A DNA stretch of 64,000 bases from a virus (IMGVR_UViG_3300035698_009252:75604-139603); one strand, 5' to 3'. Positions 400 through 38,577 are shown, counted from the first letter of the stretch. Notes: generated by a model not told the origin, from the sequence alone. Numbers and translations: made by a program.

Positions 400-422
400 T
401 CTATGGTCGGCATATCAAAGAA
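400..422 (-). promoter_or_regulatory. Putative phage late promoter (TTCTTTGATA-N7-CATAGA)
   Basis: One of 8 intergenic copies with an invariant 7-nt spacer; just upstream of the RBS/ATG at 387. Confidence 0.6.
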
Positions 423-425
423 AAC

Positions 426-761
426 TCAGTGAAAGCACATGAGACAGGCGGAGGGCATCAATAGTATCCATGAGACCACGGCGAAGCACATGCTCTTCAA
501 ACTACGAATGCTACTCACGAACTTCTGAGCCTTGACCGTCCCGGCACCGCCGAAAAACTGGGTTTTGGCGTGCCGGATATGTTCTTCGCGCATTTCGAAG
601 ACAAACACAACCTTCCGGTTTCCATTCGGGGACTGACCCGTCTCAGTCGTTACGAGAGGGAAATCCAGCGAGCACAAATAGGCCGCAAAATAAATGTCCG
701 AAGTCCTATAGAGCTTCTTTTTAGCCTCAGACGCCCCGGACGTCTCCGTTTCCGTAGTCAT
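426..761 (-). CDS. DUF5659-like small phage protein
   Basis: YRTSDIYFAAYL...VVFVFE motif; start placed at MTTET after GGAGG. Confidence 0.5.
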   Translation of the reverse strand: MTTETETSGASEAKKKLYRTSDIYFAAYLCSLDFPLVTTETGQSPNGNRKVVFVFEMREEHIRHAKTQFFGGAGTVKAQKFVSSIRSLKSMCFAVVSWILLMPSACLMCFH

Positions 762-2375: not shown

Positions 2376-2936
2376 TCAACCGAGTTTTCCGGCCAACTCA
2401 ACAAGCATGCCATATTCAACCGGGTCTCGGAAAGCATCTTTTCCATCTTTTATGAGGGCCTTGACACGGTCCTTTACTGCATCCGCGCAGCCCTCGTAAA
2501 AGTATTTCTTCTGTTTGTCTATGGCGTCAAAAAGGTCATCATCCCCCAGCAAGGAATAGAGGGCGTCGCTAGGGTCGGTCTTCAAGCTGCTGGGCTCATC
2601 ACCCTGCCGCATGTTGTTGACCATCTTGACGATTTTATCAACGTCCCTGGAGTTGTTCGGTAACGCCCATGTCCCAGCAACTCGCGTGCTTCCCAATTTC
2701 CCGTTCCAGGGATGGCGTATCTTCAATCGTTTCATTCCGACGCCGACGGCATCTTTAAGGTCAATGATATTACGGATGCCGCTCATCTCAGAGATATACC
2801 GTATCAGGCGGTCTCCGTCCCGACGGGATATACCCAAGTCAGTGACATATCTCTCAATCTGGCCCTCCGTAATACCGGACGAGACGAGAGCTTCGGCAAC
2901 GGTTATCAGCCGCTTTGCTATCTTCTGGCTATCCAT
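2376..2936 (-). CDS. Tagged hypothetical protein (helix-tag family)
   Basis: Starts MDSQKIAKRLITVAEALVS; internal RVAG. Confidence 0.7.
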   Translation of the reverse strand: MDSQKIAKRLITVAEALVSSGITEGQIERYVTDLGISRRDGDRLIRYISEMSGIRNIIDLKDAVGVGMKRLKIRHPWNGKLGSTRVAGTWALPNNSRDVDKIVKMVNNMRQGDEPSSLKTDPSDALYSLLGDDDLFDAIDKQKKYFYEGCADAVKDRVKALIKDGKDAFRDPVEYGMLVELAGKLG

Positions 2937-3001
2937 TTCGTTTCCCTTACAGACCAGGGCCAAGGCCAGAAAATATCCTGGCCCAGCCCATCGCCGTCAA
3001 G

Positions 3002-3415
3002 TTACGGAATTGTCACAATAGAACCACCAACGCCACCGAAGTTCGCGCCCGTGCCGTACCGGCGATTGCCTGTTGCGGCAATCAGGGTGTCGGACAACGT
3101 CTTCTCTGCGTCCGTCATGGGGATTTTGTCGAGGTCCCGACCTACAGCTCCCAGCATCTCCACCAGGACGTACGTCGGCTCGCTGTCGATGTCCCCCTGA
3201 TAACTTGAAGCGGCTGCCGTTACGCTCTTCTTGTTGAACGTCGTTTCTAACCATGACCGCGTACCCGTCTGAGTCTGCGGGTTCCAGATGGCCTTCAGGA
3301 ACGTCTTGACTGCTGCCAATTCGACTCCCGTGGGCTCTGTGATTCTTGCATTGCGGGCAATGTTCCATACCCACCGTGAATACTGCCACCAACTACCTGT
3401 CGTGCTACCGGCCAT
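3002..3415 (-). CDS. Hypothetical protein (possibly virion structural)
   Basis: 137-aa ORF with AGGAGG RBS; no tag. Confidence 0.6.
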   Translation of the reverse strand: MAGSTTGSWWQYSRWVWNIARNARITEPTGVELAAVKTFLKAIWNPQTQTGTRSWLETTFNKKSVTAAASSYQGDIDSEPTYVLVEMLGAVGRDLDKIPMTDAEKTLSDTLIAATGNRRYGTGANFGGVGGSIVTIP

Positions 3416-3534
3416 GACTGGCCTCCTTTCGCTTTTCTGCTCTTAGAGGTCTCGCAAGCGATAACCTCAACATGGTCGCGTTAGTGCTCCATGCCGACCC
3501 GTATGAGCATAGGGTCAAATCCATCTGACTTCCC

Positions 3535-3813
3535 TTATTGAAATGTGTCCGGGTCCTTGAACGCATCAATGGTCTGACGCACTTCATTCGCCGTCCCCAT
3601 GTTCACATCGGACGGGTCTGCGTCATCCATCTCCCGAACCAACGCTTCGCGGGCCTGCATCATCGCCTTAAACGGTTTGTCGGCCTTGGTCAGATAGTCC
3701 TGGTAATCCGTCCAGGCTTCATCTGCCTTCTTCAAGGCACGCACCAAGCCACCGGCTGCCGCAAGTTCTCTTGCCACGGCCACTAACTCTCTTGCTATAC
3801 GCGCATCGTTCAT
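3535..3813 (-). CDS. Tagged hypothetical protein
   Basis: MNDARIARELVAVARELAAA. Confidence 0.75.
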   Translation of the reverse strand: MNDARIARELVAVARELAAAGGLVRALKKADEAWTDYQDYLTKADKPFKAMMQAREALVREMDDADPSDVNMGTANEVRQTIDAFKDPDTFQ

Positions 3814-3820
3814 ATCGAGT

Positions 3821-4039
3821 CTACATCTGGCTCAAAGCCCTTGCGATGTCCTTTTCCAGCCTAACCACCTTACGGTTTCTCATCTTCCTCGGGACACCCC
3901 CGAGGGCTTTGAGGATATCGCTCTTCAATTCTTCTTGGACTTCAGGAGACAAGTCTCCGATTCCTCCTGCAAGCCGCTCGGCAGCCGTCAAGTCCTTCGC
4001 TACGGCCACTAACTCCCGAGCTATACGTGCGTCGTTCAT
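3821..4039 (-). CDS. Tagged hypothetical protein
   Basis: MNDARIARELVAVAKDLTAA. Confidence 0.75.
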   Translation of the reverse strand: MNDARIARELVAVAKDLTAAERLAGGIGDLSPEVQEELKSDILKALGGVPRKMRNRKVVRLEKDIARALSQM

Positions 4040-4261
4040 TTACCATTCCAGAGAGTTGTTCTTAACGGTTAAAGTCCGTGGCTTGACGTCCTCGATGGCC
4101 TTCGTCCTGCTCTTCTTTATCCACCACTTGCCCTTGTACTTGAACCGCTGGCCACTTCTCAGGTCCGGCCATGACGGACGGCCCCGGTCCATCTGAGGAG
4201 CCTTCGCCGTCAAGTCCTTGGCCACTGCTACCAGCTCGCGTGCTATACGTTGATTATCCAT
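4040..4261 (-). CDS. Tagged hypothetical protein (basic, small beta domain)
   Basis: MDNQRIARELVAVAKDLTAK; WPDLRSGQRFKYKGKWWIK resembles WRDIPIGSKFKVSGKRQKWLK in 4874-5470. Confidence 0.75.
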   Translation of the reverse strand: MDNQRIARELVAVAKDLTAKAPQMDRGRPSWPDLRSGQRFKYKGKWWIKKSRTKAIEDVKPRTLTVKNNSLEW

Positions 4262-4515
4262 CAGGAAACCTCACTATTAAATCTTATGTGCAACTTGCTT
4301 TGTATCGCGTCGAGGTAATTCGTGGCGTCCAATCGGCCATGAAACTCATCCGCCATGTCAATCTCCCGGCCATAAACATCATAATCTATACCATCCTCGT
4401 CCAACAAGTCTGTCACCTTCTTCAGGTCCATTGTAGACCGGACACGAATCGTGATGGATGCCGTCAGCTTGCGTGCCACGGCTACCAATTCGCGTGCTAT
4501 CTGTTGCCTGTTCAT
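4261..4515 (-). CDS. Tagged hypothetical protein
   Basis: MNRQQIARELVAVARKLTAS. Confidence 0.75.
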   Translation of the reverse strand: MNRQQIARELVAVARKLTASITIRVRSTMDLKKVTDLLDEDGIDYDVYGREIDMADEFHGRLDATNYLDAIQSKLHIRFNSEVS

Positions 4516-4877
4516 GACCTCCGATAGATGACGCTCAATGCCGCATTGAGTTCTTCGTCGCTTCCGTTAAATCCATTGGAGACGACGAACAGAGTCTTTT
4601 TCTTCATGTCGATGCGTGCCCGGTCATCGTAAATACGGCGCTGCTGGAACTTCCCGACAATTTCCGGCATCGCTCGAAGAATCTTTATGGCATCTTTCGC
4701 AGCCAATTCCTCCAGCTCGTCGGCAGCGTCCTGTACGAAAAAGAGGTGACCCTTCTCCACAGGCACCCGCGTCTCCCAGACGATGTTGCCATAAGAGATG
4801 TATCTTTTCACAGAGGACAGCGCCGTCAACTCTCGGGCTGCTGCGACCAACTCTCTGGCTATCTGCTGGTTTTTCAT
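4512..4877 (-). CDS. Tagged hypothetical protein
   Basis: MKNQQIARELVAAARELTAL. Confidence 0.75.
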   Translation of the reverse strand: MKNQQIARELVAAARELTALSSVKRYISYGNIVWETRVPVEKGHLFFVQDAADELEELAAKDAIKILRAMPEIVGKFQQRRIYDDRARIDMKKKTLFVVSNGFNGSDEELNAALSVIYRRS

Positions 4878-5470
4878 AGAAGAAACTTCCTCTCATCCCT
4901 GATGTAGCTGCGAAGCTCTCTATCCGAGATGCTCATCTCTTCAATCTCTTCCGCGAGAAAATCATCGTTCTTGACGATACGAAGAATGGCCGAATCGCTT
5001 TTGTTCTTGTTCATCATAACGATTGCACCAAAGACACCCGTAGCATCGCCACTGAAACTGCCCATGCTGCTCGCTATCCTCTCGTAGTCGTGCTCACCCG
5101 CCTCTGCCTTGCCCATTTTCACAACGGCATCTGCGGGGACCGCCGCGTACTTACCTATCTTCAACCACTTCTGGCGTTTTCCCGATACCTTGAACTTGCT
5201 GCCGATAGGAATATCCCTCCACTGCTTCTGCATCTTCGGGGGACCCTTTCGGGAAGCTTCTAGTCGGCGAATCTTGGAGTCACTGTAACCGATTTTCTTC
5301 AGGAACGCTCGGGCCTCGTCCTTGTTCATTCCACCCATGACGTTGGCCATGGCATCGTTCATCTTGAGCGTCTTGAGGGCGATAGCCCTCTGGTGACGCT
5401 CCGGGACAGACAAAGCCGTAAGCTCTCTTGCGACTGCCACCAACTCGCGTGCTATCGCTTGCCTATCCAC
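4874..5470 (-). CDS. Tagged multi-module hypothetical protein
   Basis: GTG start at 5470: (M)DRQAIARELVAVARELTAL; internal LEAS and RIASS junctions. Confidence 0.7.
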   Translation of the reverse strand: MDRQAIARELVAVARELTALSVPERHQRAIALKTLKMNDAMANVMGGMNKDEARAFLKKIGYSDSKIRRLEASRKGPPKMQKQWRDIPIGSKFKVSGKRQKWLKIGKYAAVPADAVVKMGKAEAGEHDYERIASSMGSFSGDATGVFGAIVMMNKNKSDSAILRIVKNDDFLAEEIEEMSISDRELRSYIRDERKFLL

Positions 5471-5471
5471 G

Positions 5472-5729
5472 TCAGTATGCCTTCCTGGCCTTTTTAAGCC
5501 CCTCAAGGAGCCCATCCATCAAGGGTGGCATGAATTCGTTGACCCAGAGTTCGCCGGTCGGATTGAGACGGTCGTCATCAGACAGTTTGGCCGACTTCTT
5601 GAGAAGCTCGGTATGCAGCTTTACGGCAAGTTTCTCGCCATACTGGCGTGCCACCTTGTGCCAGAGGTCTTCGGCGGTCAACTCTTTTGCGGCTGCCACC
5701 AGTTCTTGAGCTACTTGCTGTCTGTCCAT
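5472..5729 (-). CDS. Tagged hypothetical protein
   Basis: MDRQQVAQELVAAAKELTAE. Confidence 0.75.
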   Translation of the reverse strand: MDRQQVAQELVAAAKELTAEDLWHKVARQYGEKLAVKLHTELLKKSAKLSDDDRLNPTGELWVNEFMPPLMDGLLEGLKKARKAY

Positions 5730-5747
5730 AACATCCATCTCCTCCTA

Positions 5748-5770
5748 CCTATGACGGCTGTATCAAAGAA
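5748..5770 (-). promoter_or_regulatory. Putative phage late promoter (TTCTTTGATA-N7-CATAGG)
   Basis: Intergenic copy inside the tagged array, directly before an AGGAGG RBS. Confidence 0.65.
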
Positions 5771-5781
5771 TAAATGCCCAT

Positions 5782-6252
5782 TTACGAGAGCAAATCGATT
5801 TCCATCACGCCACGAGAACGCGCCACGGCTACGGCCTTTGCCTTCGCCTGTGCATAGTTGCCAGAGAAGAACACCTCATCACCATCGATGTTGAAAGCCC
5901 ATGAACCATAGCCACGTGGCCTCTTGCCGTAACTGTTTTCGAATTGCTGGGTATTGACCCGGACTCCGGCAACCCTGGACCGGTCCGAGACTCGGGAGGC
6001 TTTGTCACGCCCCTGCCACGATGTAAGCCGTTTCTTGGCTTCTTTTTCAACCTTGGCAAGCATCTCCTCTACGATTCTGGCATCTCCCCGCAGAATTTCA
6101 TCTTCCCCGGCCAATTCCCATATCACACCTCGAAGGGCACGCAAGACCAGGTCAACGCGCCCATTGGCCTTGTTTACAAGTTTACGGGCGTCAGCTACAC
6201 CAATCCCCGCAGAGAGGTTTCGGGCAATTGTGGCTATGCGTTCTTCATTCAT
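5782..6252 (-). CDS. Tagged two-module hypothetical protein
   Basis: MNEERIATIARNLSAG; second module after SRVAG. Confidence 0.7.
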   Translation of the reverse strand: MNEERIATIARNLSAGIGVADARKLVNKANGRVDLVLRALRGVIWELAGEDEILRGDARIVEEMLAKVEKEAKKRLTSWQGRDKASRVSDRSRVAGVRVNTQQFENSYGKRPRGYGSWAFNIDGDEVFFSGNYAQAKAKAVAVARSRGVMEIDLLS

Positions 6253-6956
6253 AGCTGTTTCTCAATATCCGCCAAGGTCTTGTCCAGGCCCTGAGCCGAT
6301 TCAATCATCTCCTTGAGATTTTCCCTGGCCCGGTCAATGGCACTGCCAACATCCCTGCCATTCTTCAGCATCCCCAAGGCTGCCATCGTGATGTCGAACG
6401 TGATGTTGTACGACTTGTGAACTTCCTTAAGGAGAAGCTCGGCAGCCCGGATATCGCCCGGCGGTACATTCGCAACGAGTTCCCAGAAATTGAATTCGCC
6501 TTCGTTCAAGACGCGCTCTCCACGGGTGCCCCGAATCTCCCAAATGCCGTCATCATACTTGCGAAGAACAATCCATGAACCCCATTCGGGGTGTTGCTTG
6601 TTCCTGATGATAACCCGTTCTTTCACGTTCTTCGTAGTCAAATCTTCGGCCACAAGCTGCCGCGCTACTGCCAAAAGCCTGCGTGCTACCTTGTCATTGG
6701 CTGTCATGGGGCTTCCTTTCTCGTATCCCAAACGGTCCAACATCTTCACTATCTCCCGTGTCGTACCGAACAAGCCATACCACGTCCACATGTGGTAAGC
6801 ACCCCCATTCCGGCGCTTACGGCCCTTGTAAAAGTATTCCTCAGTCGTCCCGACACTGTCTTCCACCTCGTCCAGGTCTTTCGAGATGTTAGTCGGGCTT
6901 TCGTCCCCTGTGGCCCAAATCACCAGGCCATTGGCTTTTATGTAGTAACCCTTCAT
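6249..6956 (-). CDS. Hypothetical protein with internal helix tag
   Basis: Start MKGYY at 6956; internal NDKVARRLLAVARQLVAE. Confidence 0.7.
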   Translation of the reverse strand: MKGYYIKANGLVIWATGDESPTNISKDLDEVEDSVGTTEEYFYKGRKRRNGGAYHMWTWYGLFGTTREIVKMLDRLGYEKGSPMTANDKVARRLLAVARQLVAEDLTTKNVKERVIIRNKQHPEWGSWIVLRKYDDGIWEIRGTRGERVLNEGEFNFWELVANVPPGDIRAAELLLKEVHKSYNITFDITMAALGMLKNGRDVGSAIDRARENLKEMIESAQGLDKTLADIEKQL

Positions 6957-6969
6957 CTCATTAACCTCA

Positions 6970-7425
6970 TTATCGTTGCGGCGGGACAATAATTGTAATC
7001 TTATCTCGGGGCCTAAGCCCGAGGCCCTGGACAACACGCTCCATGTCTCCGACTCGAATCACGAGTCTTTGTTCGGACTGGATTGTCAATCGGTTCGATT
7101 CCAGTAGTGAAATTTTTCGGGTGCTCTCGTTGAATACGGCAAGTTGTTCCTTCTGCTCCATCGTCTGCCCATAATGCCCTAACGAGAAACTACGAGTTCC
7201 ACTGATAGGCGGGACCCGTTCAACCCAATCCCCACGCTGTCCCGACCAGGAAAACAGATGGCCCCGTTCGGAACGAATGACTGTTCCCTTTAGGAATCTC
7301 ATATACCACGAGCCGAAACCAATCCTGAAATCCTTCACCGCCAGGAAATGGCCCAATGGCAATTCTGCCGCCACAAGTTCCCTTGCAACCGTCACCAGTT
7401 CCTTTACTATTCCCTGGTTGTCCAT
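6970..7425 (-). CDS. Tagged hypothetical protein
   Basis: MDNQGIVKELVTVARELVAA. Confidence 0.75.
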   Translation of the reverse strand: MDNQGIVKELVTVARELVAAELPLGHFLAVKDFRIGFGSWYMRFLKGTVIRSERGHLFSWSGQRGDWVERVPPISGTRSFSLGHYGQTMEQKEQLAVFNESTRKISLLESNRLTIQSEQRLVIRVGDMERVVQGLGLRPRDKITIIVPPQR

Positions 7426-7820
7426 TACCTTCTCCAGAAGCCCGCTCTCTTGCCAATAGCATCCAGCGCCCTATAAATGTCCTTTGGGCTTGGTATGTCT
7501 TCGTTAAATTTCTTACGGACGTTACGTATGATGCTGCCGTTGACCCATCCATCCACCGAAATAAACCATGGCTTGTTGACCGGCTTGAACAGGCTTATGC
7601 GAACCTGGACGCCGTCCTTGCCACCCGCGCTATCCAGAATAAACCGAACACCACCAACGAACTTCTCTGGCCTCTCTATGACATACCCACGCGACTTGGC
7701 TTCAACCAGAAAATGCGTTGCTCCATCCACGAAGGCATCCATCCACTCGTCGGAAACAAGCCCGGCCATCAAGTCCCTTGCCACGGCCACTAATTCCCTA
7801 GCTATCTTGCGGTTGTCCAT
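7425..7820 (-). CDS. Tagged hypothetical protein
   Basis: MDNRKIARELVAVARDLMAG. Confidence 0.75.
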   Translation of the reverse strand: MDNRKIARELVAVARDLMAGLVSDEWMDAFVDGATHFLVEAKSRGYVIERPEKFVGGVRFILDSAGGKDGVQVRISLFKPVNKPWFISVDGWVNGSIIRNVRKKFNEDIPSPKDIYRALDAIGKRAGFWRR

Positions 7821-8065
7821 CAGTTCTGCTCCCTCCACGCCTTGTCCAGGTAATCGGCAATCTCGTCGATGTCCTCCGCCATCCCCCGAAGCCTACGAAG
7901 AACTTGTCTCAATTCGAGTTGCTTGGCCGCGTTCTGAAGCGTTTTTAGGGAGAATAGAATGCGCTGACTGGCGCTATGGATATCATTGACGTCGGGATTA
8001 GACTGACCAGCCGTCAAGTCCTTAGCCACGGCTACCAACTCTCTTGCCACTGATTTACTGTTCAC
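7820..8065 (-). CDS. Tagged hypothetical protein
   Basis: MNSKSVARELVAVAKDLTAG. Confidence 0.75.
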   Translation of the reverse strand: MNSKSVARELVAVAKDLTAGQSNPDVNDIHSASQRILFSLKTLQNAAKQLELRQVLRRLRGMAEDIDEIADYLDKAWREQN

Positions 8066-8334
8066 GAATCTACCTCTTTTATCGCCTTGCGGACATCACT
8101 GTCGGCCTTCGTCACGGCCCGAGTCAGCTTGCCCATTGCGGTGTTGATTTTCCGGGTGTACTCGGGAGGTTCCTTGAAGGTGTAAGAGTCCTCGGAGAAC
8201 CAAAGAGCACCGACATCCTCCGCAAGTTGTTGAAGTGTCTCAACAGCCTGTCTCCGCTCATCCCACGGGTTACGGGCAGCCGTCAACTCCCTCGCCACAG
8301 ATACCAACTCTTTTGCCACGAATTCGTCGTTCAT
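8062..8334 (-). CDS. Tagged hypothetical protein
   Basis: MNDEFVAKELVSVARELTAA. Confidence 0.75.
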   Translation of the reverse strand: MNDEFVAKELVSVARELTAARNPWDERRQAVETLQQLAEDVGALWFSEDSYTFKEPPEYTRKINTAMGKLTRAVTKADSDVRKAIKEVDS

Positions 8335-8723
8335 CGAAATCTCCTCGCCACTTTGAGAAGTGTATCTTTTATCCACTTTGCCGCATAAGCAGCAATTTCA
8401 TTCCTTCGGTGTGGCTCCACATATCGGAAGGTTTCCCTTGCCTGTTCTCTACCACCCGGCACCTTTTTCGTCGAGAAAATGACCTGCCACTCCCCTGAAT
8501 CAGACACTCTGTCACCGAAATCAGTCTGGGCAACATCATCGTCGAACCAGATATGGGCATAGAGAGGAATGTCCAGCCCCGACACATTGAACTCAATGGA
8601 GACGTGCTTGCCGGGCCGGATTTTCAAAAGGGCCGGAGCCATGCTCCCGGCCTTTCGAGGACGAGATACAGACAAGTCCTTGGCCACTGCTATCAGCTCG
8701 CGTGCAATCTTCTGTTCGTTCAT
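8331..8723 (-). CDS. Tagged hypothetical protein
   Basis: MNEQKIARELIAVAKDLSVS. Confidence 0.75.
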   Translation of the reverse strand: MNEQKIARELIAVAKDLSVSRPRKAGSMAPALLKIRPGKHVSIEFNVSGLDIPLYAHIWFDDDVAQTDFGDRVSDSGEWQVIFSTKKVPGGREQARETFRYVEPHRRNEIAAYAAKWIKDTLLKVARRFR

Positions 8724-8730
8724 AATTCCT

Positions 8731-9144
8731 CTATCTTATCGCGCTCTCCAACATGTCGATTATATCCTGGTCGTAATCGTTCCGGCTTGACTCAACATCC
8801 TTCGGATTCCTCGACATCTTGCGCACGGAATCCCGAAATTCACTGTAATCCGTATCCTCTCCGATTGAGTTTGCGATGTGCCTTCCATCCCTCCAATCTC
8901 CATACAGAACGATGTCTATATCCTCATACCCCTTGGAGCGGAGCGCATCTACCCACGCTTTAATAAGGTCATCCCGGTTGTCATGGGACAGCATATCGCG
9001 ACTGCCCCAAAACCCCATACCACCAGACATTTTCTTGCCTAGTTTGAAAATTTCCCGGTATGACAGTTTTCTCGCAACCCGGCTTCCAGCCATCAACTCC
9101 CGTGCCAGGGCTGCCAGTTCTTTCGCCAAATCATCCGACTTCAT
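8731..9144 (-). CDS. Tagged hypothetical protein
   Basis: MKSDDLAKELAALARELMAG-SRVAR. Confidence 0.75.
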   Translation of the reverse strand: MKSDDLAKELAALARELMAGSRVARKLSYREIFKLGKKMSGGMGFWGSRDMLSHDNRDDLIKAWVDALRSKGYEDIDIVLYGDWRDGRHIANSIGEDTDYSEFRDSVRKMSRNPKDVESSRNDYDQDIIDMLESAIR

Positions 9145-9145
9145 T

Positions 9146-9586
9146 TTACCAATCTCCCGGTTTCTCAAGGTCGTACTTGTCGGCAAGCCACTCGGTGAAC
9201 TCTTTGGGGCTCTCGCCACTATCATACCCCGTACGGAACTGGCTTTCAGAGAAAATGTCATTCCTGGCCAGCATGTAATCCTTCTGCATGATGGCAATCA
9301 CTTTGTCTTGCCACTCCCGGTACGACATGCCCTGCTTCTTGGCCACATCCAGCATCGGAGAATAGACATAAGCTGCCACGCCGAGTTCGGCAATTACCCG
9401 CTCCGTCCTCAAGAGCTTACTCTTAAAGGCACGAGCTTCGTCCTGCAAACCCGCCTTGTTCAAATCACCAACGAGTTTGGAACAGGCTTGAACGAGATTC
9501 CGGCTGGCTTGCTCCACCTCACGGCCACGGTCGTTTTTACCCGCCACACGGCTTGCGATTCTCGAAAAACGGTCTTCTTTGTTCAT
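9146..9586 (-). CDS. Tagged (short variant) hypothetical protein
   Basis: MNKEDRFSRIASRVAG. Confidence 0.65.
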   Translation of the reverse strand: MNKEDRFSRIASRVAGKNDRGREVEQASRNLVQACSKLVGDLNKAGLQDEARAFKSKLLRTERVIAELGVAAYVYSPMLDVAKKQGMSYREWQDKVIAIMQKDYMLARNDIFSESQFRTGYDSGESPKEFTEWLADKYDLEKPGDW

Positions 9587-9596
9587 CGGGTTCACC

Positions 9597-10226
9597 TCAA
9601 TCCACTGCACAATATTGATGATACGGTATTCCAGCCTTGGACATCGAATTCAGAACTTCCCCGAATGTTGCTCGCTTTATCCAGCTCTCGTTGTCCGTTG
9701 CCCAACGATAGAACATCTTGATTGACGTCTTTTTCGCGCCACGAACTGTCGGGATGCAGGTCGGCTCGTTGAACTTGTCATCCTTGTCACGGACCGAGAA
9801 CGTATCAAAATTGGCTTCGATGGAGACGTGCTTGCCATCTATCTTGATGGGGGCAAACCCACCAGGCGGAACATCTACACCCCGGAGAACGCGCTCGTCT
9901 GTATTGGCGCTGTTGTAACTTGACGCCTCGTTGATAGCCTCGACGCCCTTCTCCATGATTTTGACGGCCTGCGCGTAATTCCGGGCGCGAGCCAAGTCAT
10001 CCATCATGTCCTCGACTTCGGCCTTAGCGTCGTCGGCATAATCCAGGTCGTAAGCGGAGAACTGGTTGCACCTCTTACCACGCTTGCCCGCATTGGTCAA
10101 GTCAGTCACCTGGACTGACGAGCGGTACCGATGGATACGGATGGAGCCCTGCTCGACAGTCTTGCCGACACTTAGGCCACCAAGAAGGCTCTTTGCGATT
10201 TTCAGGAGTACCCGAGCTTCGTCCAT
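9597..10226 (-). CDS. Tagged hypothetical protein
   Basis: MDEARVLLKIAKSLLGG. Confidence 0.7.
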   Translation of the reverse strand: MDEARVLLKIAKSLLGGLSVGKTVEQGSIRIHRYRSSVQVTDLTNAGKRGKRCNQFSAYDLDYADDAKAEVEDMMDDLARARNYAQAVKIMEKGVEAINEASSYNSANTDERVLRGVDVPPGGFAPIKIDGKHVSIEANFDTFSVRDKDDKFNEPTCIPTVRGAKKTSIKMFYRWATDNESWIKRATFGEVLNSMSKAGIPYHQYCAVD

Positions 10227-10597
10227 TAGATGTAGCCCCTCTGTCCAGGCTCTTCGTTCTTGATATAGTCGGCTTTGCCCTTAATGGCCTCAACCAACTT
10301 CATCACCTTTTCCTCGTCACCCTCGATGCCGATGTAGCTGGCGTAATCCGGCTCGGGGCTACGTTTGCCGTTGTAGTACTCACCGGAGATGGGGTCATTC
10401 GCGGTAACGACTAGGATGCCTGGACCCTTCCAGACCCATCCCTTGCTCGTCTTCCGGGGCCTTGTACTCACGCCGACACTCTTGAGAGCCTGAATCCACT
10501 TGGATGCCCGGATTTCGGTCAAGTCAAACCCGTGCTCATACGCTGTAAGCTTCCGGGCCACCCGTATCAGTTCTCTCGCGATTTTCTGCGTTGTCAT
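10226..10597 (-). CDS. Tagged hypothetical protein
   Basis: MTTQKIARELIRVARKLTAY. Confidence 0.75.
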   Translation of the reverse strand: MTTQKIARELIRVARKLTAYEHGFDLTEIRASKWIQALKSVGVSTRPRKTSKGWVWKGPGILVVTANDPISGEYYNGKRSPEPDYASYIGIEGDEEKVMKLVEAIKGKADYIKNEEPGQRGYI

Positions 10598-10601
10598 ACT
10601 C

Positions 10602-11576
10602 TTAGCCCCTTGTCATCTTGATACGTTCGTACCCCTTGCGTTCCTTCGTCCGCAGGTGTTTTTCACAAGCGGCAATCGCCTTGGTCAAACTGCTTACGGG
10701 ACCACCGAAATACTTCGCGGTCAAATCGTAGGCCCGCTCGATGATACCGATACGGCCCGAGCAATTCCAGCCAACGTAGACCTCTTCTCCCATGTCGTTT
10801 TCGACCGAGTACACGACATAATAATGGTATTTGTTGGCATTGGCCCTCGGGTCAACAATGACCAGGTAGGACGACCACCTTCGGTCCAAGTCTCGTGGTC
10901 TTGCAGACACACCGCCGTACTCAGCAAGCGTGGCCACAACCTTTATACGCATCTTCTTGGAGAGCGCCGGTGCATAACTCGTCAGGGACTGCTTGACTTC
11001 CTTATTGCGCATTCTTATGTCCACGTCGCGCCGGATGGGCTCCCAGTCAGCCTTTTTGACCTTCTTCTTGCACTTGACACAATAGCCAGTCTGCTCCAGG
11101 ACCTTCGTGCCACAGTCCGGGCACTTGAAAGTTTCAGCCGCCTTTTTGACCTTTTTCTTGCACTTGACACAGAAACCAGTCTGCTCCAGGACCTTCGTTC
11201 CGCAGTCCGGGCACTTGAAAGTTTCAGCAGCCTTCTTGTCCTTCTTTTCCTTGTCCTTCAGGAAATCGGGCTTGGGCTCATTCTCCTTGCCATCATTGTC
11301 CTTATCCTTGTCCTTCCACTGCTTCTTGAAGGCTTCGGGGACCTCACCTTTCCCAGACACCAATGCCTCGGCGATGGCAACCAGACGTTCGGAGACGGAG
11401 GACTTCTTGTCCTTCTTTTCCTTGTCTTTCAGGAAGTCAGGCTTCGGCTCATTCTCTTTGCCGTCGTTGTCCTTATCCTTGTCTTTCCACTGCTTCTTGA
11501 AAGCCTCGGGGACTTCACCCTTACCTGCCAGCAACCTTGCCACCGCTATCAGCTCTTTCGCTATACGTCTATTCAT
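10602..11576 (-). CDS. Tagged modular protein: 2x lysine-rich module, 2x Zn-ribbon, C-terminal WGR-like domain
   Basis: Two tags, duplicated GKGEVPEAFKKQW module, duplicated CPDCG...CVKC, then ANKYHYY...WNCSGRIG...KERKGY (WGR-like). Confidence 0.7.
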   Translation of the reverse strand: MNRRIAKELIAVARLLAGKGEVPEAFKKQWKDKDKDNDGKENEPKPDFLKDKEKKDKKSSVSERLVAIAEALVSGKGEVPEAFKKQWKDKDKDNDGKENEPKPDFLKDKEKKDKKAAETFKCPDCGTKVLEQTGFCVKCKKKVKKAAETFKCPDCGTKVLEQTGYCVKCKKKVKKADWEPIRRDVDIRMRNKEVKQSLTSYAPALSKKMRIKVVATLAEYGGVSARPRDLDRRWSSYLVIVDPRANANKYHYYVVYSVENDMGEEVYVGWNCSGRIGIIERAYDLTAKYFGGPVSSLTKAIAACEKHLRTKERKGYERIKMTRG

Positions 11577-11869
11577 GTCAATTCTCCTATGGCACGCTCT
11601 AGCGCCTTTTGCGTTTTCTCCAAATTATCTACTTCGCGAGTCAGTTTTGACAACTTTTGCAGGGCCTTCCGGTCAAGTGTCGCATCCACGGCGTTGTTTA
11701 TACGGGACCGGAGTGAGTGAACCATCAACTTCAATGGCTCGGTATCCTCTTGAGCCCATTGCATATAGCGAGCGACATCCATCACCTTGACCCCTGTCAA
11801 TTCCTTCTTACCGGAGATAAGTTCCTTGGCTATGGCCACCAGTCTGCGTGCTACACGTTCTCTATTCAC
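11573..11869 (-). CDS. Tagged hypothetical protein
   Basis: MNRERVARRLVAIAKELISG. Confidence 0.75.
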   Translation of the reverse strand: MNRERVARRLVAIAKELISGKKELTGVKVMDVARYMQWAQEDTEPLKLMVHSLRSRINNAVDATLDRKALQKLSKLTREVDNLEKTQKALERAIGELT

Positions 11870-11881
11870 GTCAATTCTCCG

Positions 11882-12286
11882 TTACAGCATTCTCTTTATT
11901 GCTCTCTCAAGTCTACCCACGTCCATTACCCTTTTCAGCTTGACGGAAACCAGGAACGGGTATCCTTGTTCCCTCGGGCGGAGCGCCCGAATCCTCCCGC
12001 TATTCGCAAATATGGACAATCCCGCCTTCCCCAAGACATCTCCCAGTCTGGCAAAAACACGTTCGGCCTCCTTCTCTACCTCTCCCTGCATGTCTAACGT
12101 GTCGATGGCATCCAGGTCCTCTCCCCGCAAGTAATCCCCCTCGGGGGTGACAATCGTTCTCAGGGCAATAGAATCCTCCGATACCGACACCAGCTCAAAA
12201 CTGGGCCACTCTGGCTCGGATGCCGCGACATTCCGCCCAACCAGTTCACGCGCTACAGCAGCCAGTTCCTGTGCTATTTTATCCAT
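11882..12286 (-). CDS. Tagged hypothetical protein
   Basis: MDKIAQELAAVARELVG. Confidence 0.75.
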   Translation of the reverse strand: MDKIAQELAAVARELVGRNVAASEPEWPSFELVSVSEDSIALRTIVTPEGDYLRGEDLDAIDTLDMQGEVEKEAERVFARLGDVLGKAGLSIFANSGRIRALRPREQGYPFLVSVKLKRVMDVGRLERAIKRML

Positions 12287-12970
12287 TTACCGGCCTTTAC
12301 TGATTTCAAATCGGTCATTTGCTTTGAACCAAATACGTCCAAGCTGTGAGCCATTCGTCCCGCCAGTCACATGTTCCCAATTCAAATCGACCAGGCCCCC
12401 TATGATACCGTCCTTCAAGATTCTCTCGGTGAAGACCACACTCAGGGTCAGCTTTTTGATGGTCATGCCCATAATACCGACGTCATCCTCCAGCCCGGTC
12501 TCCTCGAAGTAGAGATAGCCACGCTGACGCTTGGGTGCCCCCAATGAGGGCTTGTGTCCGAAAGCACTACGGATGGCCGCTTCCACTTTTCCCTTTGAAG
12601 CCATAAGCGTTTTTACGCGATCTTCCACGGCGGCGTCCTCTATCGCAGACCCACCCACCAAATTCTTGGCCAATCCCACCAATTCCTGAGCCATCTTGTT
12701 ATCTTTCATGTTCAATCTCCGAGGGCTTGAAGCCCTTCTCATCGCTTTTTCAACCACCTTTGTCATAATCTTCTCCTGCTCTCGAAGGGGAAGCGATTCA
12801 AAATCTGTGGGTACATCCGTACGCCTTGTCTTATTGTACAGCTCGCCATACCCAAGGGCCTTGAAAGCCTTATCGATATCCATATGTTTCTCATGGAATC
12901 GGCTCATAACGTCAACAGCGATATCCTCGGCGCTATCCTCATAGTCTTGCTTCGAGCCACGGGCGTTCAT
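12287..12970 (-). CDS. Hypothetical protein with internal helix tag
   Basis: Internal MKDNKMAQELVGLAKNLVGG. Confidence 0.7.
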   Translation of the reverse strand: MNARGSKQDYEDSAEDIAVDVMSRFHEKHMDIDKAFKALGYGELYNKTRRTDVPTDFESLPLREQEKIMTKVVEKAMRRASSPRRLNMKDNKMAQELVGLAKNLVGGSAIEDAAVEDRVKTLMASKGKVEAAIRSAFGHKPSLGAPKRQRGYLYFEETGLEDDVGIMGMTIKKLTLSVVFTERILKDGIIGGLVDLNWEHVTGGTNGSQLGRIWFKANDRFEISKGR

Positions 12971-14010
12971 TTCAACTCCACCATTACGGTAATCCAACTC
13001 TTCTCCCCATCCCCATAGTTTATGCGGACAATGGCCTGCCGGTATGGAGCAAGTAGCGGCTCAAGTATCTTTTTGAAGTTGTCAGTCTCCCTTTCGACCA
13101 TATCCCGGTACGTGCTATACCCAACATCGCTTTCTCCCTCTTTCGGCAAATCGGACCGATAGGAACCTTTAATACGGGTATTGCCACTGGAAATCTTCGC
13201 GTCATCCTTCATCCAGGGACTCTTCCTGGAAATGGCCGTATCGATGGCGTTGCTAACGCCCTTCGCTATTTTCTCCCTATTCGCAATGGCATCCGTCTCG
13301 CCCTTCAATCCACTCCACCCCTTCAGGGCCTCCAACATCTTCTGAGCCGCTTGTTTAGGGGACATTGACGTTGGTGTGCCATAGCTGCCAAACACTACCC
13401 CAGGCCCCTCTGCCGATGTGGTATTTTCGGTAAGCGTAATTTCACGCTTCATCCCATCCGAATTTCTTCCATCAACGCGCAAGATGACCTGGTACATCAC
13501 CCCGGATGGATAGTCCTTCTTCTGCCACGGAATCACTTCCAGGGCCTTCGGGTCTTCCAGTTTCGAGCGAATAATGCGAACGACGGACTGGGAGAATTTC
13601 TTAAGGGCCGGAGGAATGGCCTTTTTGGAAAGGGTTTGGACCACCTTCTGGGCCTGGCCGATTTGCCTGGTAAACCGCTTTATCATCACGTCGGCATCTT
13701 TAACAGCCCGCTGTACGGTCTTGTCTTCGGGGAAGTTCGTCAGGATTTGCTGCACTTCCTTCTGCACCCGGTAAGCCGATTGAATGCCATCCTGGGCCTT
13801 CTTGAGCACGACAAACTGGCCATCCACCTCCGGGTCGAGACCTGCCTGGAAGTGCATGGAAAATGTCCCGATGGTGTCGTCGATATTGTCGGCCAACTCA
13901 TCAAGAGTACCCAAAGTGCGTAGAAGCCCCTTCAGGAGCCCTTTAGAGGCATCTGCTTCAAGCCGCCGGGCAATATTTGACATGCGTACTGGAAAGGCAA
14001 TTTTCTTCAT
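12967..14010 (-). CDS. Tagged (variant) hypothetical protein
   Basis: 347 aa; RMSNIARRLEAD near the N-terminus. Confidence 0.7.
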   Translation of the reverse strand: MKKIAFPVRMSNIARRLEADASKGLLKGLLRTLGTLDELADNIDDTIGTFSMHFQAGLDPEVDGQFVVLKKAQDGIQSAYRVQKEVQQILTNFPEDKTVQRAVKDADVMIKRFTRQIGQAQKVVQTLSKKAIPPALKKFSQSVVRIIRSKLEDPKALEVIPWQKKDYPSGVMYQVILRVDGRNSDGMKREITLTENTTSAEGPGVVFGSYGTPTSMSPKQAAQKMLEALKGWSGLKGETDAIANREKIAKGVSNAIDTAISRKSPWMKDDAKISSGNTRIKGSYRSDLPKEGESDVGYSTYRDMVERETDNFKKILEPLLAPYRQAIVRINYGDGEKSWITVMVELK

Positions 14011-14013
14011 TTT

Positions 14014-14259
14014 TTACTCGTTTGTCAGAGCCGGGAACACGTCGTAATCGTTCTGCAAAGACTTTACCGCTTCCCCAACCTTATCCGCCGGGATTTCCCC
14101 GGTGACCCTCTGGCCCCTCACTTTCAAGCGGGCTGACGGGAAGTCCGCAGAAAATGCTTCGGCCTCATCCTGCCCAACGAAGTACAGCTCGACTTCAACA
14201 TTCTGGGATGCAGTCGTCATCCGTTCTGCAATCCTCTGTAACCTGGTATTGTCGCTCAT
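14014..14259 (-). CDS. Tagged (short variant) hypothetical protein
   Basis: MSDNTRLQRIAERMTTAS. Confidence 0.65.
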   Translation of the reverse strand: MSDNTRLQRIAERMTTASQNVEVELYFVGQDEAEAFSADFPSARLKVRGQRVTGEIPADKVGEAVKSLQNDYDVFPALTNE

Positions 14260-14882
14260 CTCGCGTTCCTTCCTTGAGTGGTAATACGAATGCCTTGGGC
14301 CATGATTTTGACCAAGCCCTTCTCTGCCAGGCTCTCGATAATGGGGTTGTCTTTGCCGTACTCGCCGAGCCGGTGCCGCAGGAACTCTTGCGCCCGGTAA
14401 CTGCTCTTGATGCCTCCAACAATACCCAGAGCCGCCTTCTCGTCCGGGGTGAGGATAACATCGTCATCCGGCTCCGGCATTAACTTGTCGACATCTCCCG
14501 GTCGCACGTAGATACGAAGGAAATTGCCCCGGCCACCAGCTTCCCCGGCAATAACCACGGAACCATTCGGCACATTAAAGGATTCCTCCCGGTCGAGAGC
14601 CCGGTCCTCAAAGGGATTTGAGCCACCCCACGAGCCTTGCTGAGCGTCACTGATGCGACCAGTACTCAAGTCAACCGTCACGGACAGGGCTCTATTCCCC
14701 TCAAATGCCGTCGAAACGGAATACTTTGAGTCGTAGATGACCTCGATGTCCCGTCTGCCGTACCTGAGCCGTTTTAAGGCCCTTTGAACGGCATCAGGGA
14801 GGTCCCTAACGGCTACATGTATTCCACCCATGGCCTTAAGAGAGATTTTCCCTGCAATATGGACAATTCTACGTTCGTCCAC
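14256..14882 (-). CDS. Tagged (variant) hypothetical protein with C-terminal winged-helix-like segment
   Basis: MDERRIVHIAGKISLKA; LAEKGLVK..GIRITTQGRNA. Confidence 0.65.
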   Translation of the reverse strand: MDERRIVHIAGKISLKAMGGIHVAVRDLPDAVQRALKRLRYGRRDIEVIYDSKYSVSTAFEGNRALSVTVDLSTGRISDAQQGSWGGSNPFEDRALDREESFNVPNGSVVIAGEAGGRGNFLRIYVRPGDVDKLMPEPDDDVILTPDEKAALGIVGGIKSSYRAQEFLRHRLGEYGKDNPIIESLAEKGLVKIMAQGIRITTQGRNAR

Positions 14883-14893
14883 GGCAGCCCCCT

Positions 14894-15145
14894 TTACGCC
14901 TCGGCCAATACCTGCTCCAGGGCACCCACCAGGTCTTCAACCGTGGAGTTCGGGCGAATCACGCCAATGCCGAACTGGTTCAGCTTCCGGCGCTTCTTCT
15001 GGCTCAGTTTGTTGAGTTTCGTCCGAAGGTTACGGATACGCCCCGCAAATGCCTCGTCCACTTCCTCGCCGTCATCGGCTGCTGTCAACTCGCGAGCCAG
15101 TGAAAGGAGCCTCTTCGCCGCCTGAATTCTCTTCGTGTTGGTCAT
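14894..15145 (-). CDS. Tagged hypothetical protein
   Basis: IQAAKRLLSLARELTAA. Confidence 0.7.
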   Translation of the reverse strand: MTNTKRIQAAKRLLSLARELTAADDGEEVDEAFAGRIRNLRTKLNKLSQKKRRKLNQFGIGVIRPNSTVEDLVGALEQVLAEA

Positions 15146-15463: not shown

Positions 15464-15486
15464 CCTATACTCCCAATATCAAAGAA
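15464..15486 (-). promoter_or_regulatory. Putative phage late promoter heading the tagged-gene array (TTCTTTGATA-N7-TATAGG)
   Basis: Lies between the TROVE terminator and the array. Confidence 0.65.
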
Positions 15487-15506
15487 TTATCATAACAGAA
15501 ATGCAC

Positions 15507-35194: not shown

Positions 35195-36055
35195 TTAGAC
35201 CCTTGTGATGGCGAGGACTTGCAGTGCAAATGGGTTATATGCCCCAATGCCGAGCTGCTCGAAGATGCTGAATCCAATCAGGCGGTTCTTCGGGTCATCG
35301 GCGGACAGCACCGTCAGCTCCGTACGCACCGGAATGCGACCGAAGAATTCGGGCTCACCGCAGACATACACGGTGCCTTCCGGCACAATGCGGCTGACCA
35401 TGAGCTTGGCACCCCAGAGGGTAGCCATGAGACCGGTCTTCAACAGAACGGCCTGCGTCTCGATGTCGAGCGTGTCCCTGTCCCACTTACGCAGGTCGGC
35501 GTAATCCTTGGCGTTCAGGAAGACGGACGCGACACGGATGTCGGTACGCTCCACGTTCGCGAAGGCATCTGCCAGGGCGTTCGCCGTCAGGTTGCCCGTG
35601 ACGGGGATGCTCGGGTTCGGGTTCGTCGGGTCGGCGGCAAGGGCGTCCATAACTGCGAAAACCTTGCGGTCCTCTTCAGCCTGGATTTCGGCCTTGGCCA
35701 GGTCGACGGAGCGCTCAATCAGGTCGAAACGACGCTGCTTGATTTCCGTGAGCTGGATTTCCGGGTTCGACGCGATTTCGAAGAGCGGGAACAGAACACG
35801 CTTCGGCTTTGCGACCGCAACGATGTTCTCGCCTTCCTCACCGACCACGTAGGCGGTGATGTTCGGGTCCTTGTCGTAGATGGGGAGTGCGCCATCGGGA
35901 AGCGGCTCGACATAGAATGCCTTGCGACCGACCGAGGTGTAGTCCCTGCGACGACGCAGAGGCTGAATCATCGAGCTGGCCAAACGCTGGCGTCCTGCCG
36001 CCGTACGAATGTGCTGGCCAATGATTTCTTGTTTGGTTTGGTTGTCAACAGCCAT
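35195..36055 (-). CDS. Major capsid protein (HK97 fold)
   Basis: PLRRRRDY..VGRKAFYVEPLPDGALPIYDKD, PLFEIASNP, AEIQAEEDRKVF; strong codon bias; lies after scaffold and decoration genes. Confidence 0.8.
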   Translation of the reverse strand: MAVDNQTKQEIIGQHIRTAAGRQRLASSMIQPLRRRRDYTSVGRKAFYVEPLPDGALPIYDKDPNITAYVVGEEGENIVAVAKPKRVLFPLFEIASNPEIQLTEIKQRRFDLIERSVDLAKAEIQAEEDRKVFAVMDALAADPTNPNPSIPVTGNLTANALADAFANVERTDIRVASVFLNAKDYADLRKWDRDTLDIETQAVLLKTGLMATLWGAKLMVSRIVPEGTVYVCGEPEFFGRIPVRTELTVLSADDPKNRLIGFSIFEQLGIGAYNPFALQVLAITRV

Positions 36056-36188
36056 GGTTGTACCTAACCTTTCTTTTTGTGCTTCCGGTTTCAGTCGGCG
36101 TTATCGCCGCCCTGTCCTTCTTGCGTTTTGTTTCTTATCCACTCGCCTGAGCTGCTCCCCACCGGTTAGGGCGGGGAGCACTCACACG

Positions 36189-36683: not shown

Positions 36684-36719
36684 TTTTTAGCTCTCCCTTC
36701 CTACTGTTTTTTCTCCGGC

Positions 36720-37847: not shown

Positions 37848-37849
37848 GA

Positions 37850-38533: not shown

Positions 38534-38577
38534 TTTCCGTCCTCCTGTCATTACGCAAAGACACCATTCAGTTCTAC

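Follow-up and report, generated by a model that had tools for sequence, protein, structure and literature searches.

[quoted passage not shown] The phiKZ-like giants, such as SPN3US, have very large capsids, tens of internal proteins and an assemblin-type prohead protease (PMC7411985, PMC10052503); a C-terminal propeptide of the SPN3US protease gp245 has been proposed to target the protease into the prohead (PMC7411985), and the head and ejection proteins carry long individual propeptides. Encapsulin cargo-loading peptides are likewise short and portable, and the shell into which they bring unrelated proteins has the HK97 fold; these peptides are usually C-terminal and extended, serve one or few cargo types per shell, and operate in shells that package no DNA. 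Docking tails of prohead proteases and scaffolds, such as the HK97 gp4 tail and the C-terminal capsid-binding helix of the herpesvirus scaffold and protease, take the protein into the procapsid by means of a helix behind a flexible linker. The encapsulation peptides of bacterial microcompartments are N-terminal amphipathic helices of ~18 residues, which are joined through a poorly conserved linker to unrelated enzymes.

Here we describe a short helix, referred to as the tag, in a phage of the phage G lineage that has a small HK97-fold capsid protein and a protease family other than that of T4. The window is the whole stretch of DNA analysed, 64,000 nt (IMGVR_UViG_3300035698_009252:75604-139603) of a 139.6-kb contig, and positions are counted from its first letter. 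Like the T4 CTS, which is found on IPI-III and Alt in hypervariable T-even loci (PMC3012670, PMC7411985), the tag is a short N-terminal peptide and the sole common part of unrelated, fast-changing small proteins, the genes being clustered in both cases. The two differ in that 1) the tag is a two-heptad helix of 14–19 residues, whereas the T4 CTS is some 10 residues long and closes with an established cleavage site, 2) at least 28 strong copies are present on a 43%-complete genome, compared with four in T4, 3) the tag can be C-terminal or internal as well, and 4) the tag consensus has no evident likeness to the T4 CTS sequence. The T4 CTS carries proteins into the prohead scaffolding core, and the tag may have the same role. 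In contrast to the protease docking tails, the helix here is N-terminal on dozens of accessory proteins, and in contrast to the phiKZ-like propeptides it is one short peptide shared by all. The microcompartment peptides have the same anatomy but belong to a different kind of shell and show no sequence relation, so that the likeness is an analogy only. An encapsulin system was rejected, because the shell is the capsid of a phage that also encodes a portal, a terminase and a protease, and no encapsulin-type signature was seen.

Tandem array of tagged genes

The tag was searched for with a regular expression first and then with a tag profile (HMM). Across the whole contig the HMM identified 28 copies at E ≤ 0.05, all on the minus (coding) strand, and the reversed-sequence control gave zero; a profile search of the contig with the 20-row alignment A1 as the query returned 30 places at E ≤ 1. 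A single tandem array contains 25 of the 28 copies and extends past the left edge of the window, where four further tagged genes occupy ~3.4 kb. Within the window, the array has the following features (tag scores are from the HMM):

14894..15145 (-): 83-aa protein, weaker tag at 15074-15124 (E=3e-4); body with a tagged homologue in relative L096
12967..14882 (-): three genes (347, 81 and 208 aa), degenerate or short N-terminal variants only (low positive profile scores); no match in family searches
12287..12997 (-): 236-aa frame, internal tag at 12647-12703 (HMM)
11882..12286 (-): 134-aa tagged protein, tag from residue 1 (E=1.5e-7)
11573..11869 (-): 98-aa tagged protein, GTG start (E=7e-7)
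10602..11576 (-): 324-aa protein with two tags (11520-11576 and 11352-11387), zinc ribbons and WGR (Pfam DZR and WGR)
10226..10597 (-): 123-aa tagged protein (E=6e-7)
9597..10226 (-): 209-aa conserved-body protein, degenerate leader (67 homologues)
9146..9586 (-): carrier of the short leader variant given in the first-pass annotation (protease-tail profile)
3535..9144 (-): 15 tightly packed genes, 14 with strong tags (E 1.5e-9 to 8.5e-6) and one with a degenerate leader; starts at 3813, 4039, 4261, 4515, 4877, 5470, 5729, 6252 (degenerate), 6707 or 7037 (internal tag), 7425, 7820, 8065, 8334, 8723 and 9144
3002..3415 (-): conserved untagged 137-aa protein within the array, 45-81% identity in the arrays of all relatives examined; no match in family searches
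2376..2936 (-): 186-aa tagged protein, last tagged gene in 2376-15145 (E=1e-5)

The first-pass annotation had described the region 2376-15145 as an array of about 27 proteins encoded by tightly coupled genes. In agreement with this, a strong tag was found on 21 proteins, with a second copy in the 10602-11576 product; six proteins had a degenerate or short variant only (start codons 6252, 9586, 10226, 14010, 14259 and 14882), the 3002-3415 product was the sole conserved protein that was untagged, and stop and start codons overlapped among the genes of 3535..9144. Paralogues of the untagged protein were located just upstream of the protease gene in relatives G003 and G004.

In nearly all copies, the residue ahead of the profile match is encoded by a start codon, ATG or GTG, that has a ribosome site of the GGAG type. 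Scores of at least 15 bits were obtained for the N-terminal 40-aa windows of 23 of the 171 genes versus 2 of the 792 internal windows, and both of these internal windows were preceded by start codons of their own. A strong tag lies at an internal position in the gene at 6249-7037, and in the 236-aa frame a GGAG-type site with an ATG at 12709 could give rise to a separate 140-aa tagged protein. Besides N-termini, the placements included internal sites, one conserved C-terminus and duplications, some carriers having two or three copies. No match to the tag profile was found in the cultured relatives phage G and Tunturi_5.

Composition of the tag

The peptide rather than the DNA had been proposed to be under selection, and comparison of the copies bears this out: identity at core codon positions 1, 2 and 3 was 62, 78 and 38%, respectively, compared with ~27% in both flanks, so that the peptide is conserved and the DNA is not, the third positions being near random. 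At identical residues, the same codon was used in 37% of pairs versus 29% expected from codon usage. That the helix is amphipathic is evident from its hydrophobic moment, 0.56 compared with 0.30 in shuffles, and its heptad pattern has only two polar positions per turn pair; the apolar face consists mostly of Ala, Val and Leu without aromatics, and Glu is as frequent as Arg. A Sec/Tat signal peptide was rejected, as the first-pass annotation had done for Sec, since charged residues every 3–4 positions and a mean hydrophobicity of 0.13 leave no uninterrupted hydrophobic core. Alignments of the copies revealed no conserved cleavage motif in the residues that follow the tag; it is a matter of speculation that Ala-x-Glu triplets within the tag are cut sites.

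Unrelated bodies and exchange of leaders

After removal of the tag, all-against-all BLASTP of the bodies gave nothing below E=0.008, consistent with the earlier description of them as mostly unrelated. They ranged from 49 to 470 aa (median 114 aa), with a pI above 8.5 in 19 of 35, and recognisable domains were present in only two of them, namely a known enzyme fold and the zinc-ribbon/WGR domains. Known internal head proteins are similarly small and mostly basic.

The 324-aa protein consists, in order, of a tag, a Lys/Asp/Glu-rich linker, a weaker tag, a repeat of the linker, two zinc ribbons and a WGR domain; in L096 the tag is directly joined to the zinc-ribbon/WGR body, and in L095 the Lys/Asp/Glu-rich linker is found on another body. 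The 2376..2936 product has, in its C-terminal 100 aa, homology to a tagged protein of L095 that is shorter. The relatives thus recombine body domains with the tag and different linkers, and the gene content of the array differs between them, a variability that had been named as support for the first-pass reading. A 299-aa tagged protein is encoded just beyond the left edge of the window, and its C-terminal domain exists untagged and on its own in two other viruses, Paraglaciecola virus GD1 and Streptococcus phage Javan64.

Exchange of leaders on one body was seen with the 209-aa protein, which is conserved across huge phages. A 68%-identical orthologue has the full tag, many lineages have a short leader of the Arg-Val-Ala type, others have a third leader type, the G005 lineage has a Lys/Ile-rich helix, and some lineages are leaderless. 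In the AF2 model of the 209-aa protein (pLDDT 94), a helix is predicted at residues 3–15, followed by a loop (16–22) and an alpha/beta body; a structural search with this model gave no fold match.

In public data, at least 245 protein cluster representatives had the tag (E ≤ 0.001). Among the best 150 of these clusters, the tag started within the first 8 residues in 132, and 129 bodies fell into 102 BLAST families. As judged from these sequence comparisons, the helix is an exchangeable, portable module on more than 100 unrelated body families. Relative G005 has a helix type of its own on about 25–30 proteins, including head-module proteins and a 76-aa polybasic protein encoded directly after the protease.

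Head module and promoter-like motif

The tag was also found outside the array, and the following genes of the head region were examined:

51966..53807 (-): large terminase subunit (phrog_9)
47312..49273 (-): portal protein (phrog_16240)
44213..45688 (-): CCA-adding/HD tRNA nucleotidyltransferase, tag as an N-terminal extension (tag HMM E=1.6e-4)
40238..40774 (-): 178-aa head-module protein, N-terminal tag (HMM E=4.5e-4)
38953..40017 (-): prohead maturation protease, helical C-terminal tail (phrog_18299, E=3e-11)
38654..38962 (-): acidic 102-aa protein of the head module, encoded immediately after the protease, C-terminal tag at 38657-38707 (HMM E=3e-5)
35195..38551 (-): capsid operon with 233-aa and 375-aa scaffold-like acidic proteins, decoration protein and major capsid protein

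The major capsid protein matches phage G gp27 (6wkk) with E=3e-64, and the scaffold-like protein has ends that are conserved as far as G005. In the CCA-adding enzyme, the Pfam PolyA_pol head domain begins at residue 42, after the tag, and the G001 orthologue is likewise tagged. The C-terminal tag-like helix of the 102-aa acidic protein is kept in P0341, G004 and G003, and an acidic scaffold-like protein also carries the tag. The head module showed no clear tag enrichment relative to the genome average.

The protease was recognised by phrog_18299 only, with no Pfam protease family at E ≤ 0.01, including the gp21-family Peptidase_U9. Herpesvirus proteases dominate the structural matches of its model and fit the core at residues 85–286 (best Z 7.5, rmsd 2.6 Å over 113 residues, a middling match). 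Beyond this core, the model predicts a disordered linker (283–296, pLDDT below 50) and helices at 297–353, which would correspond to a docking tail, and the tail is kept in 120 homologues. When the final 22 residues of these 120 proteins were made into a profile, scores of at least 6 bits were reached by 6 of 171 N-terminal windows of the contig versus 2 of 792 internal windows (p=6e-4), the best N-terminal match being the 9146..9586 product (10.9 bits). Leaders of the 209-aa family reached at least 4 bits in 12 of 67 versus 1 of 288 (p=1e-8). The short leader variant is thus statistically similar to the tail; the full two-heptad tag profile gave no match to it, and the apparent link between tag and tail runs only via the short variant and positional equivalence on orthologues.

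The contig contains 11 copies of a 20-nt promoter-like motif. Every one of them is on the minus strand, the plus strand having none, and they include the following:

55902..55921 (-): exact copy upstream of the terminase block
50928..50947 (-): upstream of the portal block
42684..42703 (-): exact copy before the head-module block that ends with the protease
38588..38607 (-): before the scaffold/capsid operon
15474..15493 (-): at the array head, 46 nt before the first gene (15189-15428), two mismatches to the exact copies
410..429 (-): further copy
-306 (-): just left of the window, preceding the four tagged genes beyond the edge

Relatives have retained the motif both where the array begins and ahead of the scaffold gene, and in L096, L097 and L099 it lies ~70 nt after the Ro60 gene; it also precedes blocks of unknown function. 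We infer from sequence alone that the motif is a late promoter. Placement of the tagged genes in late-promoter operons had been proposed as a check, and the array does begin at the motif that otherwise precedes terminase, portal, protease and scaffold/capsid blocks. At the level of this shared motif only, the tagged proteins would be expressed together with the head genes.

Possible function of the tag

We consider it somewhat better than an even chance that the shared helix represents a capsid-loading system similar to the T4 CTS, on a much larger scale. Tagged proteins would be produced together with head proteins, and the amphipathic helix, joined via a variable linker to many unrelated proteins, would dock onto part of the prohead core during assembly. 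The partner is more likely to be a scaffold-type protein that evolves fast than the capsid protein itself. Docking would enclose the bodies in the capsid, from which they would probably exit with the DNA at infection. The label was probably derived from helices with which head proteins of the phage themselves dock, in this case the protease tail and the C-terminal end of the adjoining small acidic protein. Of the first-pass proposal, the modular label stands, being portable, variously placed and attached to unrelated bodies; loading into the capsid is suggested by anatomy and context, and head binding, presence in virions, removal of the tag, injection and a role of the cargo as effectors are putative. 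Packaging of all carriers would also mean that 15–20% of the genes of this fragment encode head cargo, which is a lot.

The helix might instead be a docking or oligomerisation module for a target other than the capsid. It could tether the proteins to a common phage or host hub, for example a host complex or a factory for replication or assembly, or let them join one another in mixed coiled-coil assemblies. With only two polar positions per turn pair, the helix is like those that dock by packing against a groove or within a bundle, and the very large number of carriers, the C-terminal and internal copies and the presence of up to three copies per protein would be natural for such a module, which nevertheless leaves unexplained the promoter-like motif shared with the morphogenesis operons, the tag at the end of the small protein beside the protease and the likeness of the short variant to the protease tail. 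We regard this as unlikely, although it deserves consideration.

It is improbable that a protease or chaperone recognises the helix, as a degron or as a signal for folding or hand-over, and that the helix thereby sets the lifetime or activity of many phage proteins rather than their location. We know of no N-terminal degron that is a 14-residue amphipathic two-heptad helix, and such a signal predicts neither the C-terminal copy on a head-module protein nor the shared promoter-like motif, even though N-terminal position, shortness, portability and lineage-specific co-evolution would all fit. Phage G does encode ClpP and ClpX (PMC12484599).

An in-plane anchor that brings proteins to the cell membrane is more improbable still: the helix is amphipathic (moment 0.56), but its apolar face of mostly Ala, Val and Leu without aromatics and its equal content of Glu and Arg argue against membrane binding, as does its presence on cytoplasmic enzymes, e.g. 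the CCA-adding enzyme, and on an acidic scaffold-like protein. Finally, a single diverged family with the helix as its best-conserved fold element, which the first-pass annotation had named as a refuting outcome, or a signal in RNA or DNA, has a negligible chance and is already contradicted, since, although duplication often yields tandem arrays and small helical proteins diverge fast, the bodies differ widely in size and in domains (a known enzyme fold in one case, zinc ribbons with WGR in another), the same body occurs with different leaders or none, one body domain is untagged in unrelated phages, and, at the nucleic acid level, third codon positions are near random and the flanks are not conserved.

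Capsid loading being the reading that we prefer, we further propose, at rather less than even odds, that huge phages of the phage G lineage have an address code evolving from protease and scaffold docking tails, with one dialect per lineage, by which each genome would load dozens of proteins into the capsid for delivery with the DNA; the body families concerned number more than 100, and a tRNA-repair enzyme is among the proteins. In size such a code would far exceed every other virion-cargo system known, and it would offer a ready means of recognising injected phage proteins in metagenomes. If the tag is a capsid address, it would mark, from sequence alone, the proteins that a giant phage brings in before gene expression, a class that includes anti-defence proteins in T4, and the library marked here would be large, quick to reshuffle and made up of proteins that are nearly all unknown. 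The helix would then also be an easy means of bringing foreign proteins into large capsids. It would also show that labels can arise from docking tails of head assembly and diverge between lineages.

Source contig

The window forms the right 64 kb of a linear 139.6-kb IMG/VR contig with a CheckV completeness of 43%; greedy gene calls on the minus strand alone covered 93% of the contig, and the GC skew was negative throughout the window. The major capsid protein (35195-36055) resembled phage G gp27 (PDB 6wkk, E=3e-64). Its identity was 69% with the counterparts in uncultured phages of 356-485 kb and 48% with the one in Tunturiibacter phage Tunturi_5. These matches identify the contig as part of the genome of a huge phage in the phage G lineage.

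The tag and its array

The first-pass annotation had described 2376-15145 as about 27 unrelated proteins sharing one N-terminal helix tag and had proposed a profile scan of the genome. Run against the whole contig, an iterated tag profile matched 28 times at E<=0.05, always on the coding strand, and found nothing in a reversed-sequence database. The array is thus real: 25 copies lie in one tandem array, which reaches leftward from 15145 to about 3.4 kb outside the window; megablast of the array found no match among cultured phages. Within 2376-15145, 21 proteins were strongly tagged (one with two copies), six had no more than a degenerate or short leader, and a further, conserved protein was untagged. 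In nearly every case the tag match began one residue past a start codon with a GGAG-type ribosome site, and at a score of at least 15 bits it was found in the N-terminal windows of 23 of 171 genes versus 2 of 792 internal windows.

Codon identity between the cores of the tag copies was 62, 78 and 38% at positions 1, 2 and 3, respectively, against a background of 27% in both flanks, and synonymous codon choice was nearly random (37% versus 29% expected). These values show that selection is on the peptide rather than the DNA, in agreement with the first-pass annotation. The core consists of two heptads, polar at only two positions per heptad, with a hydrophobic moment of 0.56 versus 0.30 in shuffled versions. 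It was also noticed that frames 6249-7037 and 12287-12997 contain internal tags with their own ribosome site and start codon, and that some metagenomic proteins of the kind of P0190 and P0192 have two or three tags at module boundaries; they may represent neighbouring genes that have fused, internal starts or polyproteins.

Diversity and recombination of the bodies

After removal of the tags, no pair of bodies matched by BLASTP better than E=0.008, bearing out the view that they are mostly unrelated. Searches of about 30 bodies against Pfam and PHROGs matched only a zinc-ribbon/WGR protein, a CCA enzyme and phrog_37844 (function unknown), so that known domains occur in just two: the CCA-adding/HD enzyme, in which the tag comes first and the earliest Pfam domain starts from residue 42, and the protein at 10602-11576, which combines two zinc ribbons with a WGR domain, preceded by a duplicated tag and a low-complexity linker. 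In 10602-11576 the duplicated segment comprises about 75 residues of tag and Lys/Asp/Glu-rich linker, the zinc ribbon downstream is duplicated too, and the same linker is joined to another body in the relative L095. The bodies are small and mostly basic, as expected of proteins lying with DNA.

When 1.84 billion cluster representatives were searched with the profile, 245 tagged proteins were recovered at E<=0.001. Among the best 150 of these, the tag started within the first 8 residues in 132, and the 129 bodies obtained fell into 102 BLAST families. Sixteen proteins had two or three tags each. In relatives, arrays are found at the equivalent place, directly after the Ro60 gene (11 tags in 10 kb at L095), and, as had been anticipated, their gene content varies and domains are recombined, one body lying behind another linker or, within a longer tagged protein, forming the C-terminal half. 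A 299-aa tagged protein encoded just beyond the left edge of the window has a C-terminal domain that is also found, untagged and stand-alone, in two phages, Paraglaciecola virus GD1 and Streptococcus phage Javan64.

The best-conserved array member in every relative is the product of 3002-3415, a 137-aa protein that lacks the tag and has a Trp/Arg-rich N-terminal helix. Paralogues of it lie immediately upstream of the protease gene in the genomes G003 and G004, and it may serve as an adaptor or receptor. The putative tail genes downstream of the array had no PHROG or tblastn match.

Exchange of leaders between lineages

The body of the 209-aa protein (9597-10226) is kept in 67 proteins from huge-phage contigs, whereas the 10-35 residues preceding it vary by lineage.

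Leaders of the 209-aa protein family
Full tag: a 68%-identical orthologue
Short Arg-Val-Ala type: many lineages
Third, longer type: other lineages
Lys/Ile-rich helix: the lineage of the genome G005
None: some members

That the helix is merely a fold element of one family was rejected, as the same 209-aa body occurs with different leaders or none. The AF2 model of this protein (pLDDT 94) has a helix at residues 3-15, a loop and a compact alpha/beta body, for whose fold Foldseek gave no match at E<=0.001 (best VIA Z 4.2). The third leader type, two helices around a conserved proline, was seen in the 209-aa family and neighbouring proteins of other huge-phage contigs (loci L143, L149 and L155; metagenomic proteins P0008, P0009 and P0012), which also have short Arg-Val-Ala-type leaders.

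G005, a complete relative of 356 kb with just 17/198 proteins in common with the source contig, carries a Lys-, Ile- and Glu-rich helix of its own at the N-terminus of about 25-30 proteins (loci L122-L139), among them several from the head module and, directly after the protease, a polybasic protein of 76 aa. Examples are L139:2909-3295 and L136:19642-19872, and a subset has a second conserved segment past the helix. The profile of the 20-row tag alignment A1 found no match in phage G, Tunturi_5, LR745208.1, G005 or G008; since G005 uses a different helix type, a blank with this profile there does not mean that a leader system is lacking. The tag is not known from any cultured phage. Together with the different leaders on the conserved 209-aa body, the helix of G005 shows that the tag is an exchangeable, lineage-specific label. 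In phage G itself (L093, NC_023719.1), a short basic N-terminal motif of its own was observed near the head genes on several small proteins (genes 13, 17, 20 and 38), including gp20, which adjoins the protease gp19; judging by a pattern search, the genome may have about 7-8 copies in all.

Relation to the head module

The head module extends from the portal (47312-49273) to the capsid protein, with the protease (38953-40017, phrog_18299) and scaffold-like proteins in between. Two of its proteins, a 178-aa protein and the CCA enzyme, have the tag at the N-terminus, and a 102-aa acidic protein right after the protease has it at the C-terminus, a C-terminal helix that recurs in relatives.

The protease model shows an assemblin-like core with a disordered linker behind it, which leads into C-terminal helices. 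Structural matches of the core were dominated by herpesvirus proteases, with a middling best score (Z 7.5, rmsd 2.6 A, 113 residues), and the C-terminal tail was conserved in 120 homologues. Matches to a profile of its last 22 residues were enriched in N-terminal windows of the contig (6/171 versus 2/792, p=6e-4) and in 209-aa-family leaders from other lineages (12/67 versus 1/288, p=1e-8). Scores were low, and the resemblance extends only to the short leader variant; the best match in the contig was the short variant quoted in the first-pass annotation. The full two-heptad tag profile showed neither enrichment nor any match in protease C-termini. In some relatives (L082:7047-9464, G003) an insertion of about 450 residues splits the prohead protease gene, and protein P0074 has intein Pfam domains.

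A 20-nt AT-rich motif, with a second short conserved box 5 nt on, recurs 11 times, always on the coding strand and mostly 10-50 nt ahead of a start codon.

Copies of the 20-nt motif ahead of gene blocks
55902-55921, coding strand, ahead of the terminase block
50928-50947, coding strand, ahead of the portal block
42684-42703, coding strand, ahead of the protease block
38588-38607, coding strand, ahead of the scaffold/capsid genes
15474-15493, coding strand, ahead of the tag array
-306, coding strand, ahead of the array continuation
-6376, coding strand, ahead of a block of probable structural genes

Four further copies include 22274-22293 and 410-429 in the window; four of the 11 lie left of it. 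Relatives have the motif at the same spot at the array head and before the scaffold gene, and other intergenic regions have a different -10-like element. The motif probably represents a promoter class that the phage itself uses for morphogenesis genes, and we infer that it may be a late promoter. The search for an 'early' promoter box gave output too noisy for use. A generic sigma-70 and terminator scan of 1-20000 did not rise above shuffles except for one strong terminator at 17462-17432; this intrinsic-terminator-like hairpin (17432-17462, coding strand), a 14-bp stem followed by a T run, lies between an RNA-gene island and the Ro60 gene.

Proposed mechanism

Three lines connect the tag, indirectly, with the head: position in the head module, the protease tail and the common promoter-like motif. 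The main rival explanation is that the helix is a docking module for a role unrelated to the capsid. A co-fold of the 375-aa acidic scaffold-like protein (36720-37847), the capsid protein and tag N-termini scored 0.01, which speaks neither for nor against docking.

The proposed capsid loading has two precedents. Diverse internal proteins of T4, with only a capsid targeting sequence (CTS) in common, enter the scaffolding core (PMC3012670; PMC7411985), and a C-terminal propeptide has been proposed to target the protease of a giant phage into the prohead (PMC7411985). By analogy, the tagged proteins would be produced together with the head proteins, the helix would dock onto the prohead core, and the docked bodies would then be enclosed. 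The partner would more likely be a scaffold-type protein than the capsid protein, because the latter is 69% identical between G000 and G005 although the leaders differ strongly, and because divergence of the scaffold-like proteins has spared only their ends. In the 375-aa protein (alignment A2) only the N-terminal domain and a short C-terminal motif are conserved to G005, the latter probably being the capsid-binding end. No residues after the tag are conserved; the one resemblance to sites cut by T4-like and phiKZ-like proteases is in the Ala-x-Glu triplets inside the tag.

In the literature we found no description of the tag, nor a paper on a shared-leader phenomenon for this lineage. The principle of a CTS on diverse internal proteins is already known from T4; what appears to be new is the tag itself, as a putative label in another phage lineage, its scale, its use at either protein end, and evidence suggesting lineage-specific dialects and a relation to the protease tail.
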